Source: Escherichia coli (GTDB taxonomy: Bacteria > Pseudomonadota > Gammaproteobacteria > Enterobacterales > Enterobacteriaceae). From it: a stretch of 64,000 nt of DNA. Position numbers and translations under genes: made by a program. Shown in pieces: positions 24,669 through 31,804 of the stretch. The notes beneath the pieces were generated by a model. The model was not told the origin of the DNA. It did not search any database and worked only from the letters and a program-made list of their open reading frames with translations. Numbering within the stretch: position 1 is the stretch's first letter; every line of letters starts with the position of its first letter. The stretch lies in assembly GCF_045037415.1 (NCBI RefSeq), contig NZ_CP173438.1. One strand, written 5' to 3'.

Positions 24669-26237
24669 TTAGCGTGCCGGCTGAGTAGTCGTGGAAGACT
24701 GCTCAAAGTGATAGCGACCGGTTTTCAGGCTGCTTGGGCCGAGGCGTGCAAACTTGAACATTAAGAACAATTCTGCCACCAGGAACAGGGTATACAGGCC
24801 GCAAATCAGCACCATTGAGAAGATGAGATCGCCTGCGGTCAGTGACGAGTTCGCCACAGCTGTCGGCAGCACTTCACCGATAGCCCACGGTTGGCGGCCA
24901 TATTCAGCCACGAACCAGCCCGCTTCTACAGCAATCCACGGCAGCGGAATACCGTACAGCGCGGCGCGCAGCAGCCATTTTTTCTCGCCAATGCGGTTGC
25001 GGATGACACTCCAGAAAGAGAGCGCAATGATTGCCAGCAGCAGGAAGCCACACGCCACCATGATACGGAACGCGAAGTACAGCGGCGCTACACGCGGAAT
25101 GGAGTCTTTGGTTGCCTGTTGAATCTGAGCTTCAGTCGCATCAGCCACGTTTGGCGTATAGCGTTTCAGCAGCAGACCGTAACCGAGATCTTTCTTCATG
25201 CTATTGAACTGGTCACGAACGGCCTGGTCAGTAGAACCAGAACGCAGTTGTTCGAGCAGAGAGTACGCCTTCATCCCGTTACGAATGCGTTCTTCATGCT
25301 GCACCATCAGTTCTTTCAGACCGATAACTGGAGTATCCACGGAACGCGTTGCAATGATGCCCAGCGCGTAAGGGATCTGGATCGCAAATTTGTTCGTCTC
25401 CTCTTCCTGATCAGGAATGCCGAACAGAGTAAAGGCAGCAGGTGCAGGTTGCGTTTCCCACTCGGCTTCAATAGCAGCCAGTTTGGTTTTCTGCACGTCG
25501 CCCATTTCGTAGCCGGATTCATCACCCAGAACAATAACAGACAGAACGGCAGCCATACCGAAGCTGGCAGCGATAGCAAAGGAGCGTTTAGCGAAGGCGA
25601 AGTCACGACCTTTCAGCATATACCATGCGCTGATACCGAGGATGAACATCGCGCCAGTCACATAACCAGAAGCTACGGTGTGAACGAATTTCACCTGAGC
25701 AACCGGGTTAAGCACCAGCTCGGAGAAGCTCACCATCTCCATACGCATAGTTTCAAAGTTGAAATCGGACGCGATTGGGTTTTGCATCCAGCCGTTTGCA
25801 ACCAGAATCCACAGTGCGGACAGGTTTGAACCGAGCGCCACCAGCCAGGTGACACACATATGCTGAACTTTACCCAGACGATCCCAACCGAAGAAGAACA
25901 GACCTACAAAGGTGGATTCGAGGAAGAAGGCCATCAGACCTTCGATTGCCAGCGGCGCACCGAAGATATCCCCTACATAGTGGGAATAGTAAGACCAGTT
26001 AGTCCCGAACTGGAACTCCATGGTCAGACCGGTAGCCACACCCAGAGCAAAGTTGATACCAAACAACTTGCCCCAGAACTTGGTCATATCTTTATAAATC
26101 TGTTTGCCGGAAAGGACGTAGACCGTTTCCATAATGGCCAGCAGGAACGCCATACCGAGCGTCAGTGGCACAAAAAGGAAGTGGTACATCGCGGTCAAGG
26201 CAAACTGTAAGCGCGACAGTTCGACTATATCTAACAT
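24669..26237 (-). CDS. cydA: cytochrome bd-I oxidase subunit I
   Basis: 522 aa starting [19 protein letters not shown]. Confidence 0.97.
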
Positions 26238-26522
26238 CATGACTCCTTGCTCATCGCATGAAGACTCCGAGAGTGAACCCCGTTAGAAAGGGTCACACGC
26301 ATGCCCCAATACAAAATTATTTGCTCGCCTCTATCGTTGCCATTTCATCAAAAGAAGAAAAGACAATGATAAAAAAGTTACAAATATGTTAATGAATAAA
26401 CCAAATTTATCCCGTAATTATATTACGCTGCAAAATCCTTACAATAAACAGGTTTTTATTGAGCAAATTTGCATTTTTCGACAGTGATCAATTTATAGCG
26501 AAATTGTCACGATCCCACCAAT

Positions 26523-26536
26523 TTGATCTACAACAA
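26523..26536. promoter_or_regulatory. FNR-like half-palindrome in cydA upstream region
   Basis: TTGATCTACAACAA, partial match to TTGAT-N4-ATCAA, about 290 bp upstream of the cydA start. Confidence 0.4.
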
Positions 26537-26574
26537 TTTATCGTGTTTTGCAGATTTTTTTCAAGAATTAAAAA

Positions 26575-26588
26575 TTGATTTATATCAA
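26575..26588. promoter_or_regulatory. FNR binding site in cydA upstream region
   Basis: TTGATTTATATCAA, perfect TTGAT-N4-ATCAA, about 340 bp upstream of the cydA start. Confidence 0.6.
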
Positions 26589-27744
26589 AATCAATCAGAT
26601 ATGTTAACCGCTCGTAAATCATGAATCATTGATGGGTTTGTTGTTAATAAATTGTAGCAAAATAACACAGTAAAACTACCCACATGGAAATATATAGATA
26701 AAAAACCAGTATTTTATTTAACAGAACCGCCTTATCGACTTTTTATAATACTAGTTAGTTAGAGTAGCTACTTTGTTGCCATTTTACATAACATATTTTT
26801 ATCAACGTTAATTGATTGTTGTCTTTATGAGCAACGTACTGTAAATCCGTCACTTATTGTTTCATTGGTAATAATCACAAGAAGAAATAGATACCTTAGG
26901 TATAGTCAGATGGAACAAGGATTTTCAAAATAAATTTATATGGTATTAATATTTCCCGATCTGTATTCAATGATTCGCTCAAAGATTGAAAATCAAGAGA
27001 AATTGTTATAGCAGTGATACGAGACAACAAAACGGAATGATTGCCAGCCGTTAGAAAACACCGGACACTCTCGTGTAAAAAGCTACCCTGTCTATGGATA
27101 TAGCGATATCGACTCATCAAGCGTGGACTGAATGATATTCAGCTCCATATGGGCGGCAACCTGGAGGATAAACATGATTTCGCCGTTGGAATCAAGGTTG
27201 TTCTGCAATATCTACCAGACTGCTTCAATTTATCTGTTTTGGAAGTGCAATAATCTTAATTTAACTATTTGAAGATGATGATATTGTCAGATGCCAGAAA
27301 TTTAGTAATCTGGAGAACCGTGTCTATGATCACTAAATATTAAAGTAATAGTCGTCAGTAACACATCGAGTGATATAACGTATTGACACCTAATCATATA
27401 AAAACAGATCGTAATTAAGCAGCATAAGAATATGTCTTATTATCATTAAAATACATTCTATTTCCATCATCCTTAAGATAATAAAACAGTGAGTGATGGA
27501 TAATTTCACCCCAAAAAAAAGCAAGCATATAAAATTAAAAAACATGACTCCACTTTCATTTTTATGAAATGGCATCGTGAAGAGGCGCCAGCCAATTATA
27601 AAGATCTTGCTCCTCAAAAAATGAAACAACTCAGCCTGAGATAATATTTTTGACCGAAGTTAACATTAAAAATGGTTAATAGTTTGCGCCTCTCACACAG
27701 GTCCAGGCAACTGCGTAACAGGCAAATCAAATTTTCGTAAACAG

Positions 27745-27770
27745 TGGGCATCATCAGATGCCCACAAAAT
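27745..27770 (-). terminator. hairpin downstream of the TPR-protein gene
   Basis: perfect 9-bp stem GTGGGCATC-tgat-GATGCCCAC just 3' of the stop; weak T tract. Confidence 0.45.
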
Positions 27771-27779
27771 ACAGCTGAT

Positions 27780-28973
27780 TTACATTTTCGTCTTTACACG
27801 TGCAATAGCTTCTTCATAAGAAGGCTTATTTTTTTCCGTATACGCCAGTTGATAATGCTGCAATGCTTCAGCATTCTGGCCCGAGGTTTCATAAATTTTG
27901 GCAATGTTATAATAGGAGTTGGCGCGCGTTGTCGCCGCATTTACCCCACTCGCTAACGAGATCGCTTTACGATTTGCCCAAATTGCTTCCGCTATGTTGC
28001 CATTTTTCTGATACGCCAGACCCAGGTTACTAAATGCCTGTCCGTAATTGCCGTCTAATTCTGTTGCCTGTTGGAAGAGTTGAATGGCTTGCTCAAGTTG
28101 ACCGGTTTTATAAACAGCTTCACCTTCGCGATTATATTTTCTTGCCAGTTGAGTATCTCCACTGTTTTGCATCGCAGGCGAAGCCGGAGCTGAAGAGTCC
28201 GTCGCAGGCATTATCACAGTGGCTAAATCCCTGACGTCTAATGTGGTGCCGTTAAAATTGGCGCTGGTAACAGAGTTGATATCTTCAAACTCGCCGTTTG
28301 GATTGAGTTTAAACACGGTCCAGATGTTCCCTCGTTTTCCTGCAGGGACACTATAACTACGTACCAGGGAGCTCCCTACATAAACAAACACTTTTGCCTT
28401 ACTGGCAGAGAGATAATTACTGTTGGGCAGCCCTTTATTGCTATAGTCCTGCACGGCATAGATGTAACTTTCACCAAAATGCTTTTTGCTGATAGTGACA
28501 GTTTCTGGTCCATAGCTATCCGTATCATCAACATCCAGATTGGCATCAGTTCCCTCTTTACTATCAAAATAGATATGTCCGCCAGGGAAGATCAAATGCG
28601 AATCAAGATCAAAAGGCTTTTCGCCCCAGCTCAAAACTACACGCATGCCATCCAGATTCGTCATCACCGGACTGATAGCATAAGTCATGCCAGCGCACGG
28701 ACATTTGACCACCAGATTGGAATACCCCTCTTTTTTGACGATTAATAGAGCATCTTTATTATCAGCAAATGAAGTCCCCAAACTAATGCTGCCCGAAGTA
28801 TTTGTGATACCAGAAACAGATTGTGCACCATTGCGTTGCAGCGTCACCGATGCCCCTTCAATGCGTTTATCTTTCACTGTCGCACTTAAAATATCAATGC
28901 TTACATCGGCGGCATAAGCACCTGCATTCATGCCCAACAGCGCGAGAGCAACTGGCAAAACAATTTTCTTCAT
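27780..28973 (-). CDS. secreted protein with C-terminal TPR repeats (accessory; not in K-12 as I recall)
   Basis: 397-aa ORF; Sec signal peptide MKKIVLPVALALLGMNAGAYA; C-terminal TPR-like repeats; AGGA RBS; visibly lower GC than flanking core genes. Confidence 0.75.
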   Translation of the reverse strand: MKKIVLPVALALLGMNAGAYAADVSIDILSATVKDKRIEGASVTLQRNGAQSVSGITNTSGSISLGTSFADNKDALLIVKKEGYSNLVVKCPCAGMTYAISPVMTNLDGMRVVLSWGEKPFDLDSHLIFPGGHIYFDSKEGTDANLDVDDTDSYGPETVTISKKHFGESYIYAVQDYSNKGLPNSNYLSASKAKVFVYVGSSLVRSYSVPAGKRGNIWTVFKLNPNGEFEDINSVTSANFNGTTLDVRDLATVIMPATDSSAPASPAMQNSGDTQLARKYNREGEAVYKTGQLEQAIQLFQQATELDGNYGQAFSNLGLAYQKNGNIAEAIWANRKAISLASGVNAATTRANSYYNIAKIYETSGQNAEALQHYQLAYTEKNKPSYEEAIARVKTKM

Positions 28974-29092
28974 GTATAAATCCTTTTTTTAATGAATGTA
29001 AGGTGGAAATTTCCCAGTTATTATTATCGTGTTAAAAGGTGAAAAAAAAGAAATAAGTACACTTTTCAGATTAACACCCACTCACCTTGAAA

Positions 29093-29116
29093 CAAAAAGG
29101 CCATCCGGAGATGACC
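29093..29116 (-). terminator. rho-independent terminator of the mngAB operon
   Basis: minus strand GGTCATC-tccg-GATGGCC followed by TTTTT, 55 nt after the mngB stop. Confidence 0.6.
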
Positions 29117-29170
29117 TGAACTTTCTGAGAAACGCTGTTTTTTCATGTGGTTTGCTTTATTACACACCAT

Positions 29171-31804
29171 TCAGACTATTCGGTAGCTAAATGTCCGCGA
29201 CTGTCCCGGTAAAAAGAGAGCTAATTCTTTTAAAACCTCATTTTTTTCTGTATTAAAGCGTTCATTCATCATGGTTTCTGTACACGTCATCACCTTCCTG
29301 CTAAACGCGACGGTCGCATCACAGCTTGTCAATTCAGCCGGATTAAACAGCCGCAATATTAATTCCTGTCTGTCTTCTGCTTTTTTTAGCGCGCTGATCA
29401 GACATCCCACTGGTGGCATTTTCAGCAAACTATAGCTTTCCGGCACATTGAATTTGGCTTTATTAAGCTTCATCGCATCCCACGGGATTTTGTTATAACA
29501 CTGAACTGGCGTCAGCCATGCGCGTGCCTGCTGGGCTACACCGGCAGTTACGGGAGTACCGATATAACTAAATAAACTCAGACGACAGGAAAATGATCCG
29601 CGTAATTGTGAATCGGACACAGGCATTTTAATTCCTGAAGGACGCCCTGGCCTTAAAAGTAAATCTTCTTTTCCCAGTAATCCCACACCACGCAACAACG
29701 TAATAGCAAAGGTTTTATTCTCTTCTCCAATGACTTCAAATTCACGTAATCCTTCGCTAAAAACGGCTATGCCGTTACGCCCTTCCTGTAAGACAGCATA
29801 GTTGAGCATATTCCATACCGGAACCGGCGCTTCTTTCCAGCCTTCTTGCTGCCAGACATTCATTGCGCAATCCTTCACTGGCCGCGTCAATGAACCAAAC
29901 TGCGTATCCGCAAGAACAACATCTGTGTTAAAAGGCGTGGGAATCAATACACGAATACGGTGATCATCGGCCTGGTTATCAAGATTAATATCCGCATCAA
30001 TGCGTCTGCTGTTATGGCTAAGAGTGATCACCGTCTCCACCCCTACCCTGCCAGAACATTGCTTTGCGCGACGCTCTGACAGATTACGCGGCACCGCTAT
30101 TTCATAGCGAATTATGGCCCTACTCTGCCAGGCTTCATGAATAATATCGTATTGCGGTTTCGCATTCGCTGAGGTAATGGCCCACTCTTCTTTTGCTGGC
30201 GAATAATCATATTCATCCCCATCATCGGAACCTTCTTCAATTTGAAACACCCGGTCATAGCGCACGCCACTATCTTTATCAACCAGACGAAGTGAACCAT
30301 CCTCATTGAGTGCAATTTGCCAGAAAGCATTTTCCAGTATTCCCTCTGTTTTACTTTTTGGCGTGACCACATTGCCAAGCTGATTCGCTTCTATATAGAG
30401 CGTGCGATACCCCATAGAAGGGACAATTTGGCTGATCTGAATATCAAACTCCATAAAGGGATCATAATTGCCGTAATGAACTATTTGCCGATCAATAAGG
30501 CCGGGATCGATCTCACGGGCATGTCGAATAAAATATGGCACAGGCTGACCGCGACCGTCTCGCAAATTAAACTGGCTACCGCGCAGTCGAACAGTTGTGT
30601 TGATAACTTCTTCACGCGGCCAGGGCATCAGGTTAAACAGGACGAGTTTGTCGGCGTCGCTCTGCGGCATGTTGTCTGCTATTTTGCGCATATAGAACCG
30701 AATTAGATTATCCGCCATGTCTTCTGCCAGTTCGAAGCGGGCGACAATCTCGCGATGAACTTTATCACTGCAGCAGCAGCCGATGCTGTCATGGGCGTGG
30801 TTTTTTAAAATTTCTTTCCACATCTTCTCCAGCAAGCCGTGGTGATAATCAAAACCTAAAGTCCAGGCCAGCGTTGCCAACGGTTCCAGCAGATTAACAA
30901 TCTTATTTTCAATGCGTGCGTGGGCAATTTTGATATCCATGCGCGTGGAACCGATGGTGCGATGCACGCGCATATATTTGCCATCGATGAATTCACCTTT
31001 CAGGATGGCCAGACTTTCACGCTGCGCTTCAATCTGCTCGAATACCTCTTCAAAGCGGCTCATCACAAACTTTCGTTGAGGATAAATTTCGCGCAGTTTC
31101 TCCATCACTTCGAAGATATTTTGCTGCAAGGGCATCTGGTCATGACCATTCGGCAATAAAATTTCTTTGGTTACTGACGCTTTTTCCAGCACGTCAAAAT
31201 AACTGTCGAGGCGTTTACGTAATCCATTTTCGTCCGCAGGTAAGTACTTACCGATGGCGTAGCCCAGCGGCAGCACCTGCGCCGTCACTTCGCTACCGTC
31301 ACTGCTTTGCCACAAAAACTCGGTTTTATCAGTACCGTGGCGCTCAGAACATCCGCGCCAGAACATGGTGCGGGTAATGCCAAATCCATTGTATATATGT
31401 GGCAGTTGCCCGGACATGCCAAAGGAATCCGGTAAATAACCTATTTTCATCGGCTCGCCAAACGCGAGGCAGTCACGCATTCCGTACATCAGATTACGGA
31501 CTATGGATTCAGCAGAAACAATCGTGGTATCGGTCTGGGTATACCAGGGACCGATAATTAATTTCCCGCCCTCGACCAACTTCTTCACACGATCTTTGTT
31601 CTCCGGTTTGACAGCGAAATAATCTTCGAGGATCGCCGTTTGCCCGTCGAGTACGTAATATTTGTATTCGTTGTCCTGTTCCAGTCTGCACAGGATCTCT
31701 TCCATATTATTGACCAGCAGAATGCGAGACTCTTCTGTGGTGAAATACCACTCCCGATCCCAGTGCATATGCGGGGTGATGTGAACGCGAGATACCGCTT
31801 TCAT
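29171..31804 (-). CDS. mngB: alpha-mannosidase (GH38)
   Basis: 877 aa; position downstream of mngA. Confidence 0.93.

Follow-up and report, generated by a model that had tools for sequence, protein, structure and literature searches.

A candidate periplasmic tetratricopeptide repeat adaptor encoded in the hypervariable sucD-cydA interval of Escherichia coli

Analysis of a 64,000-nucleotide stretch of Escherichia coli DNA (NCBI RefSeq assembly GCF_045037415.1, contig NZ_CP173438.1; the whole of this stretch is hereafter referred to as the window) has focused on an open reading frame (ORF) of 397 amino acids that lies downstream of mngB and upstream of cydA and shares their strand. This ORF represents a genuine gene, chromosomal and variable among lineages; full-length orthologs are found in several phyla, and the ratio of nonsynonymous to synonymous divergence (dN/dS) between E. 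coli alleles is 0.10-0.15. The best explanation of the data, offered tentatively and amounting to a prediction where function in E. coli is concerned, is that the gene encodes a periplasmic envelope adaptor that has been orphaned in this species. Specifically, the protein would be exported by the Sec pathway, cleaved after A21, and retained in soluble form in the periplasm, where a two-domain beta head would have a glycan or the cell wall as its probable ligand, with D122, D124, H126, D147, D149, and E157 forming a probable divalent-cation site, while the groove of a C-terminal tetratricopeptide repeat (TPR) domain would receive a partner protein. That partner, for the majority of other bacteria, would probably be a co-transcribed, secreted CE4 polysaccharide de-N-acetylase, by analogy with PgaA/PgaB and PelB/PelA; in the Enterobacterales, including the window, the deacetylase gene is not adjacent, which would make the E. 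coli protein an orphan adaptor.

The predicted route of export follows from the N-terminus, where a by-eye reading of the translation reveals the succession of basic residues, hydrophobic residues, and A-x-A that characterizes a Sec signal peptide of the signal peptidase I (SPase I) type, in agreement with the cleavable signal peptide proposed in an earlier, sequence-only reading of this DNA. A basic-then-hydrophobic N-terminus is present in 19 of 19 aligned orthologs, and the segment is of low predicted local distance difference test score (pLDDT) in the AlphaFold2 model. No lipobox, and no cysteine before residue 91, was found that would mark the protein as a bacterial lipoprotein. Given the Sec signal peptide, the missing lipobox, and a neighborhood devoid of dedicated secretion genes, the word "secreted" used in the sequence-only reading is better replaced by periplasmic.

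Beyond the signal peptide, AlphaFold2 models the protein with a pLDDT of 86.5 and a predicted template modeling score (pTM) of 0.83 over its full length, rising to 93.7 and 0.90, respectively, for residues 22-245. Within the latter region two beta domains are predicted, in keeping with the earlier guess of an N-terminal beta-sandwich, and the central region that had been left unassigned can now be divided into a putative transthyretin-like domain and, C-terminal to it, a DUF2135-like domain whose beta-sandwich is of the TerD type. This architecture draws further support from a Foldseek comparison to the PDB. The first of these ends at a conserved K-C-P-C motif (C91, P92, C93). The second carries the motif R-V-L-x-W...D-L-D-S-H...L-D-V-D-D-T-x-x-x-G-P-E-T, its conserved polar residues being R111, D122, D124, H126, D147, D149, D150, and E157. 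With the exception of D150, these residues form a cluster that is invariant or nearly so in three independent alignments and in YfaP, and that aligns topologically with the acidic Ca2+ loop of TerD; a family-wide Asp/His/Glu cluster so positioned suggests a divalent-cation or ligand site.

The C-terminal TPR repeats recognized in the sequence-only reading are well supported. Significant Pfam matches to TPR_11 (2.3e-9), TPR_12 (5.8e-8), TPR_16 (9e-5), and TPR_1 and TPR_2 (approximately 2e-4) cover residues 278-380, and AlphaFold2 places helices at residues 271-289, 293-306, 311-323, 327-340, 346-363, 367-380, and 384-396 with a pLDDT of 91-98. Outside of the repeats, the protein belongs to no characterized family, as had been suspected: the Pfam search returned TPR models only, neither beta domain is covered by a Pfam or NCBIfam model, and the NCBIfam matches are generic TPR models, all far below their cutoffs. 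Searches of PDB sequences retrieved TPR proteins only when the full profile was used and nothing significant with the N-terminal profile; no PADLOC family matched at E<=0.01, the matches in PHROGs were all weak and to families of unknown function, and a literature search on the accession, DUF2135, the function of YfaP, and the domain combination found nothing relevant. The central domain nonetheless defines a large family, with 5503 cluster representatives at E<=1e-3, and recurs, usually together with CarboxypepD_reg, in large surface proteins bearing PKD, SLH, CWB2, or Por_Secre_tail (type IX secretion system sorting) domains. Other proteins with the beta-domain pair are named in the AlphaFold database as S8/S53 peptidases and sortase-sorted proteins. 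The occurrence of this pair in large surface proteins supports an extracytoplasmic role.

Full-length orthologs are distributed broadly. The closest are found in Pseudocitrobacter vendiensis (76% identity) and in Enterobacter sp. BIGb0383 and Pectobacterium spp. (62-63%), followed by those of Nitrosomonadales and Cellvibrio (53-56%), many Bacteroidota (44-50%), Sulfuricurvum (48%), and Helicobacter burdigaliensis (40%); orthologs are also present in Acinetobacter, Vibrio, Pseudomonas, Derxia, and Lysobacter. In 18 of 28 loci, drawn from the Nitrosomonadales, Cellvibrionaceae, Bacteroidota, and Sulfuricurvum, the ortholog is adjoined by a gene for a secreted protein of 370-390 amino acids, and the same pairing, with a gap of 10 bp, occurs in Vibrio xiamenensis, such that 19 of 25 non-enterobacterial loci in total possess this neighbor. 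The neighbor is a CE4 polysaccharide deacetylase, as evidenced by a Pfam Polysacc_deac_1 match (3.8e-13) and by all five CE4 motifs being readable; its best NCBIfam matches, all below cutoff, are PgdA, PdaB, and NodB. The genera in which named homologs of this deacetylase are found also possess the TPR protein (Gallaecimonas, Bermanella, Photobacterium, Pseudomonas, Sporocytophaga), with the Enterobacterales unrepresented among the top 120. The five Enterobacterales loci are without the deacetylase neighbor. No further conserved genes were found upstream of the pair beyond close relatives. As a relocated partner in E. coli, the CE4 protein YadE of K-12 was considered and rejected, having only the TFDDG motif region in common (E 0.007). 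In Vibrio xiamenensis, a gene for a monofunctional peptidoglycan transglycosylase (Pfam Transgly; locus L043, 7371-8108) directly follows the pair on the opposite strand, which may reflect a cell-wall context or may be coincidence.

Several observations weigh against the adaptor model as proposed. The link between the TPR protein and the deacetylase is one of gene adjacency, and no adjacent deacetylase is found in Acinetobacter pittii, a Cellvibrio sp., two Bacteroidota loci, or Helicobacter burdigaliensis. Of the 52 conserved TPR positions, 46-48 persist in the Enterobacterales orphans, a level of conservation that matches both that of their other domains and that of the paired versions; this suggests a TPR ligand different from the missing deacetylase, or a further ligand besides it. 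Metal binding is proposed from the fold and the position of the motif, sequence similarity to TerD not being significant (hhalign probability 4%), and both the signal peptide and the periplasmic location are by-eye readings of the sequence. Finally, a consensus promoter scan of the DNA between the mngB terminator and the ATG returned no promoter that passed, a result that bears on expression of the gene. In Acinetobacter pittii (locus L042, 493-4361) the ortholog stands beside a Gabija-like pair, composed of an OLD-family TOPRIM/AAA ATPase and a UvrD helicase, and a resolvase lies nearby, which places it in a variable, defence-island-like region.

Evidence that the gene is maintained in some E. 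coli and lost in others comes from comparison of its alleles. Of 5426 complete E. coli genomes, 1112 (about a fifth) carry the gene, with all 1114 matches being chromosomal, and two principal groups can be distinguished: 565 genomes, including ones labelled O25b:H4-ST131, carry an allele of at least 99% identity to that of the window with its frame intact, while 512 genomes, including UTI89, CFT073, LF82, and NC101, carry an allele of 90-95% identity. In genomes labelled ST131 the gene is intact and identical. The UTI89-type allele, in contrast, is a pseudogene. In UTI89, AAG replaces the ATG start codon, the ribosome-binding site is altered (AAAAGC at the Shine-Dalgarno position), the invariant P92 and the near-invariant P156 are both changed to Ser, and a 259-bp 3' deletion, covering the window segment from approximately 27585 to 27843, replaces the last 20 codons, including those for the capping helix, and removes the downstream hairpin. 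Strain GF130 displays the same start-codon loss and 259-bp 3' deletion; AHB10 combines the start-codon loss (ATG to AAG) with an IS1 insertion (locus L040, 3839-4536) that truncates the gene after approximately 83 codons; and E69 has suffered an internal deletion. An IS1-family element is also found in the interval in TUM11356 (NZ_CP135656.1), so that IS1 has inserted independently in at least two strains; the copies in TUM11356 and AHB10 are secondary insertions. In a spread sample, the alignment begins only at base 3 for 18 of the 19 alleles that are 92.8-95.1% identical, which is consistent with the same start-codon change. The NCBI annotation pipeline (PGAP) starts UTI89-type coding sequences at Met13, yielding a "tetratricopeptide repeat protein" of 371-380 amino acids that lacks the signal peptide (UTI89 locus L003, 4327-5492), and thereby masks the start-codon loss and the pseudogene.

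Unlike the alleles with these lesions, that of MSB1_4I is intact but divergent, and synonymous divergence (dS) between E. coli alleles is 0.22-0.27. Taken together with the dN/dS given above, this level of divergence indicates long purifying selection and alleles that predate by far the B2 lineages in which they occur. The gene has been inactivated independently in other B2 lineages, and the ST131-type allele is probably still under purifying selection.

The setting of the gene is likewise variable. As the sequence-only reading had it, the interval between mngB and cydA is approximately 2.9 kb, or exactly 2930 bp, in the window; the corresponding interval in K-12 is 846 bp, shorter than the approximately 1.1 kb given in that reading. 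K-12 holds 496 unrelated bp (blastn) in place of the 2580 bp found here, such that the difference is a replacement rather than a clean insertion, and neither blastn nor tblastn detected any trace of the gene in K-12, in line with its proposed accessory status; the intergenic DNA of O157 was likewise found to hold no remnant. Gene order is sucD-mngRAB-cydA, with the gene absent, in K-12; mngRAB-gene-cydA in the window and in the opossum isolate A21; sucD-gene-cydA, without the mng operon, in UTI89 and GF130; and sucD-gene followed by other cargo in MSB1_4I. In O157:H7, neither the gene nor mng is found beside cydA, and two hypothetical genes and methylaspartate mutase genes are present there. 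A published comparison similarly describes an ST131 strain possessing mngA and mngB, which its comparator strains lack (PMC10581457). The sucD-cydA interval is a hypervariable, multi-allelic hotspot, with sucD or mngB on one side of the variable segment and cydA on the other in every E. coli examined.

Outside of E. coli, Pectobacterium and Enterobacter sp. display the order sucABCD-gene-cydAB-...tolQR, and the gene directly follows sucD in Pseudocitrobacter; the sucD...cydA slot is thus conserved across genera of the Enterobacterales. The segment is not bordered by significant direct or inverted repeats, and no integrase, transfer RNA (tRNA), or mobile-element boundary was found. The features by which a genomic island or mobile cargo would be recognized, namely an integrase or transposase, tRNA or repeat boundaries, and plasmid or phage copies, are lacking. 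A conserved slot without a mobile-element signature argues against simple recent island insertion, and, when the deeply diverged alleles and mosaic flanks are also taken into account, the horizontal acquisition put forward in the sequence-only reading is too simple, an old multi-allelic recombination hotspot providing the better description. Between the window and UTI89, cydAB is 99-100% identical while the gene is a mosaic of 85-97% identity. The divergence gradient around the variable segment is typical of an old recombined haplotype. Relative to K-12, mngB (29169-31800) is 77-85% identical in its 3' half, with identity rising to 91-96% toward its 5' end and mngA, and the distal cydA upstream region (26341-26588) is 77% identical, with cydAB itself at 95-100%.

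Four other explanations of the gene can be envisioned, each of which is less consistent with the data than an orphaned adaptor. A functionless relic, whose partner was lost from E. coli long ago and whose intact ST131-type copy has so far just escaped damage as the gene drifts to loss, would account for the independent lesions in B2 strains (start-codon loss, 259-bp 3' deletion, IS1, and internal deletion), for the absence of the gene from approximately 80% of complete genomes, and for the lack of both an adjacent partner gene and a detected consensus promoter. Such drift is difficult to reconcile with a dN/dS of 0.10-0.15 over a dS of 0.22-0.27, with intact frames in 565 near-identical genomes and in the divergent MSB1_4I allele, or with frames that remain intact in Pectobacterium, Enterobacter sp., and Pseudocitrobacter, likewise without the partner; moreover, in each of the three domains 82-92% of the positions conserved in the family persist in the orphans. 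We consider the relic explanation unlikely. Less probable still is an extension of the sequence-only reading, in which the gene, acquired horizontally, would encode a secreted effector or colonisation factor of extraintestinal pathogenic E. coli. Archetypal uropathogens, namely UTI89 and CFT073-type strains, carry broken copies of the gene, which occupies a syntenic position in plant-associated Pectobacterium and has its orthologs mostly in environmental Bacteroidota and Proteobacteria, and signatures of a secretion system, integrase, tRNA, or repeat are missing, as is any PADLOC match, with PHROG matches being only weak. To its credit, this view accommodates GC and third-position GC (GC3) values below those of neighboring genes, a signal peptide, flanking DNA strongly diverged from K-12, and an accessory gene observed solely in a set of genomes among which well-known B2 pathogens are counted.

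The remaining two explanations draw upon the central domain. A TerD-like Ca2+-binding stress protein conferring tellurite, metal, or phage resistance is suggested by the fold, and is very improbable in light of the 4% hhalign probability, the absence of a Pfam TerD hit and of the 13-residue TerD Ca2+ motif, the signal peptide, and the absence of ter genes nearby, TerD proteins being cytoplasmic and encoded in ter operons. A YfaP-like accessory of a periplasmic alpha-2-macroglobulin (YfaS) protease defence finds some basis in the homology of the central domain to the DUF2135 domain of YfaP, in the placement of yfaP within the yfaA-yfaT-yfaS-yfaQ-yfaP cluster of K-12, and in weak bMG3 Pfam hints at E<=0.1 in 5 of 27 members. 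No alpha-2-macroglobulin genes are adjacent in any of the 30 loci examined, YfaP is without a TPR domain, and the literature search on YfaP function found nothing relevant; we regard this explanation as less probable still. Returning to the orphaned adaptor, a broader form of that proposal would hold that the transthyretin-like-DUF2135-like-TPR protein and the CE4 enzyme constitute a two-gene periplasmic module that de-N-acetylates an envelope glycan, possibly peptidoglycan, across the Pseudomonadota, Bacteroidota, and Campylobacterota, that the Enterobacterales kept the adaptor alone, which now serves another conserved periplasmic partner, and that the intact ST131 copy, as opposed to the decayed copies of other B2 strains, contributes to an envelope or gut-colonisation phenotype. 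In its entirety this broader proposal is speculative, and we think it quite unlikely to hold in full.

Coordinates of the gene, of its encoded domains, and of the surrounding signals are collected in Table 1.

Table 1. Features of the 397-amino acid gene and of the interval between mngB and cydA, in window coordinates.
Feature	Coordinates	Strand	Remarks
Shine-Dalgarno-like AAAGGA	28981..28986	minus	7 nt before ATG; read directly from sequence
mngB intrinsic terminator	29098..29117	minus	hairpin with U-run, -14.8 kcal/mol, z -3.6; terminator scan
Coding sequence	27780..28973	minus	397 aa, stop codon 27780-27782; ORF list, annotated coding sequence in GN04171
Signal peptide MKKIVLPVALALLGMNAGAYA, residues 1-21	28911..28973	minus	predicted SPase I cut after A-Y-A, then ADV
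Domain 1, putative transthyretin-like / CarboxypepD_reg-like beta-sandwich, residues ~22-105	28659..28910	minus	
Domain 2, DUF2135-like beta-sandwich with TerD-like fold, residues ~106-240	28254..28658	minus	
Low-confidence linker, residues ~241-270	28164..28253	minus	pLDDT 55-66; 2 conserved columns only
C-terminal TPR domain, residues 271-397	27783..28163	minus	seven helices = three TPR motifs + capping helix
Perfect 9-bp hairpin GUGGGCAUC-UGAU-GAUGCCCAC	27744..27765	minus	15 nt past stop codon
AT-rich spacer between gene and cydA	26241..27779		1539 bp, 33.7% GC
Segment without K-12 counterpart	26589..29168		gene + ~1.2 kb AT-rich spacer; blastn vs K-12 locus

The ORF runs from ATG to stop exactly within the limits assigned to it in the sequence-only reading, with mngB at 29171-31804 and cydA at 24669-26240 on either side. 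An identical protein is listed in RefSeq as WP_000725054.1, a "tetratricopeptide repeat protein" of strain GN04171, the locus of which is 100% identical to the window across 13 kb. The GC content of the gene is 44.6% (GC3 0.42), as compared to 52.4% for cydA, 47.0% for mngB, and 50.7% for the window; it is thus lower than that of its neighbors, as had been noted, though just slightly under that of mngB. The gene possesses its own ribosome-binding site, as previously claimed. With regard to the claim of flanking terminators, the upstream one, which serves mngB, is supported by its U-run; the downstream hairpin (-20 kcal/mol, z -4.7) has a weak U tract, was not flagged by the terminator scan, and is a probable terminator. 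A hairpin resembling the mngB terminator follows sucD in UTI89. A search of Rfam returned a sub-threshold match to Ysr49, a Yersinia small RNA, at 29093-29188 on the minus strand (26.9 bits versus a gathering score of 95, E 0.024); the match overlaps the end of mngB and its terminator, and is probably just the terminator hairpin.

Within the spacer, GC content falls to 28-35% between 26250 and 27750, an AT-richness that is the one feature shown here to bear on the H-NS-prone tract suggested in the sequence-only reading, and neither an Rfam family nor significant repeats were detected. Two small ORFs on the minus strand, at 26896-27120 (74 amino acids) and 27390-27629 (79 amino acids), are probably not genes; the second is clipped by the UTI89 deletion. 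Only the cydA-proximal 348 bp (26241-26588) of the spacer are common to K-12, and O157-type strains share 638 bp. Because only these 348 bp upstream of cydA are common to K-12, distal promoter or regulator sites of cydAB may differ between lineages.

The gene was already known, in that it is present in databases under a generic name. What is new is the domain assignment, the homology to YfaP together with the TerD-type fold, the conserved pairing with a CE4 deacetylase in other phyla, and the finding that, at a hypervariable locus, ST131-type alleles are intact where UTI89-type alleles are pseudogenes. Should the adaptor model prove correct, it would offer an initial way into the function of a large extracytoplasmic family that lacks annotation (the 5503 representatives noted above) and is related to DUF2135/YfaP, as well as into that of a conserved, undescribed pair, TPR adaptor and CE4 deacetylase, with a possible role across many Gram-negative phyla in modification of the cell wall or an exopolysaccharide. 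The value for E. coli itself is narrower, and consists of documentation of the sucD-cydA hotspot, a pseudogene masked by PGAP, and lineage differences in the distal cydAB regulatory region. None of this will greatly surprise the specialist; the interest is modest, and the parts of the protein are known ones.

Comparison with known systems places the protein near, though not within, several established families. The closest relationship is to YfaP (b2225, DUF2135, COG4676), to which the central beta-sandwich is homologous (hhalign 97%, E 1.2e-10, 109 columns, using the family profile) and which shares both a signal peptide and the motif R-x-V-L-S-W...D-L-D-x-H...L-D-x-D-x-T-x-G-Y-G-P-E. Consistent with this relationship, the name given to an identical E. 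coli protein by the Joint Genome Institute (JGI) begins "YfaP (DUF2..."; beyond such names, the full-length homology search was dominated by identical E. coli entries. In contrast to the 397-amino acid protein, YfaP has no TPR domain and is encoded in an alpha-2-macroglobulin cluster. The Pfam DUF2135 model (PF09906) finds no match in the protein, in 27 family members, or in 30 multidomain relatives; because hhalign nonetheless detects homology to YfaP, domain 2 represents a divergent sister subfamily that lies outside the DUF2135 Pfam family as now defined. We know of no function for DUF2135.

Resemblance to TerD, for which the structures of Klebsiella TerD (2kxt), SCO6318 (2qz7), and SAV2460 (2qng) serve as comparisons, extends to the beta-sandwich fold; the sequence gives no Pfam hit to the family (PF02342). 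Where TerD proteins carry the Ca2+ motif GDN(R/L)TGEGDGDDE, the 397-amino acid protein has L-D-V-D-D-T-x-S-Y-G-P-E, and it differs further in being predicted to be exported and in lacking a ter operon context. Domain 1 can be compared to transthyretin-like domains such as the N-terminal extension of SusC (9hfj) and that of carboxypeptidase D (5aq0). The E. coli sequence itself falls below Pfam significance for CarboxypepD_reg (PF13620), and, in distinction to such domains elsewhere, is here fused to a DUF2135-like domain via the conserved C-P-C motif. With respect to the system as a whole, the TPR domains of PgaA and PelB cooperate with the deacetylases PgaB and PelA, and a periplasmic TPR module encoded beside a secreted CE4 de-N-acetylase in most non-enterobacterial loci is reminiscent of these pairs. 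The protein contains no beta-barrel of the kind associated with the synthase-dependent exopolysaccharide scaffolds PgaA, PelB, BcsC, and AlgK, and no synthase or porin gene is present in the E. coli neighborhood or conserved among the 28 related loci. The likeness to the Pga and Pel systems is thus accompanied by a clear difference in organization: the TPR domain is not fused to an outer-membrane porin, and the whole comprises a two-gene module free of synthase and cyclic di-GMP receptor genes.

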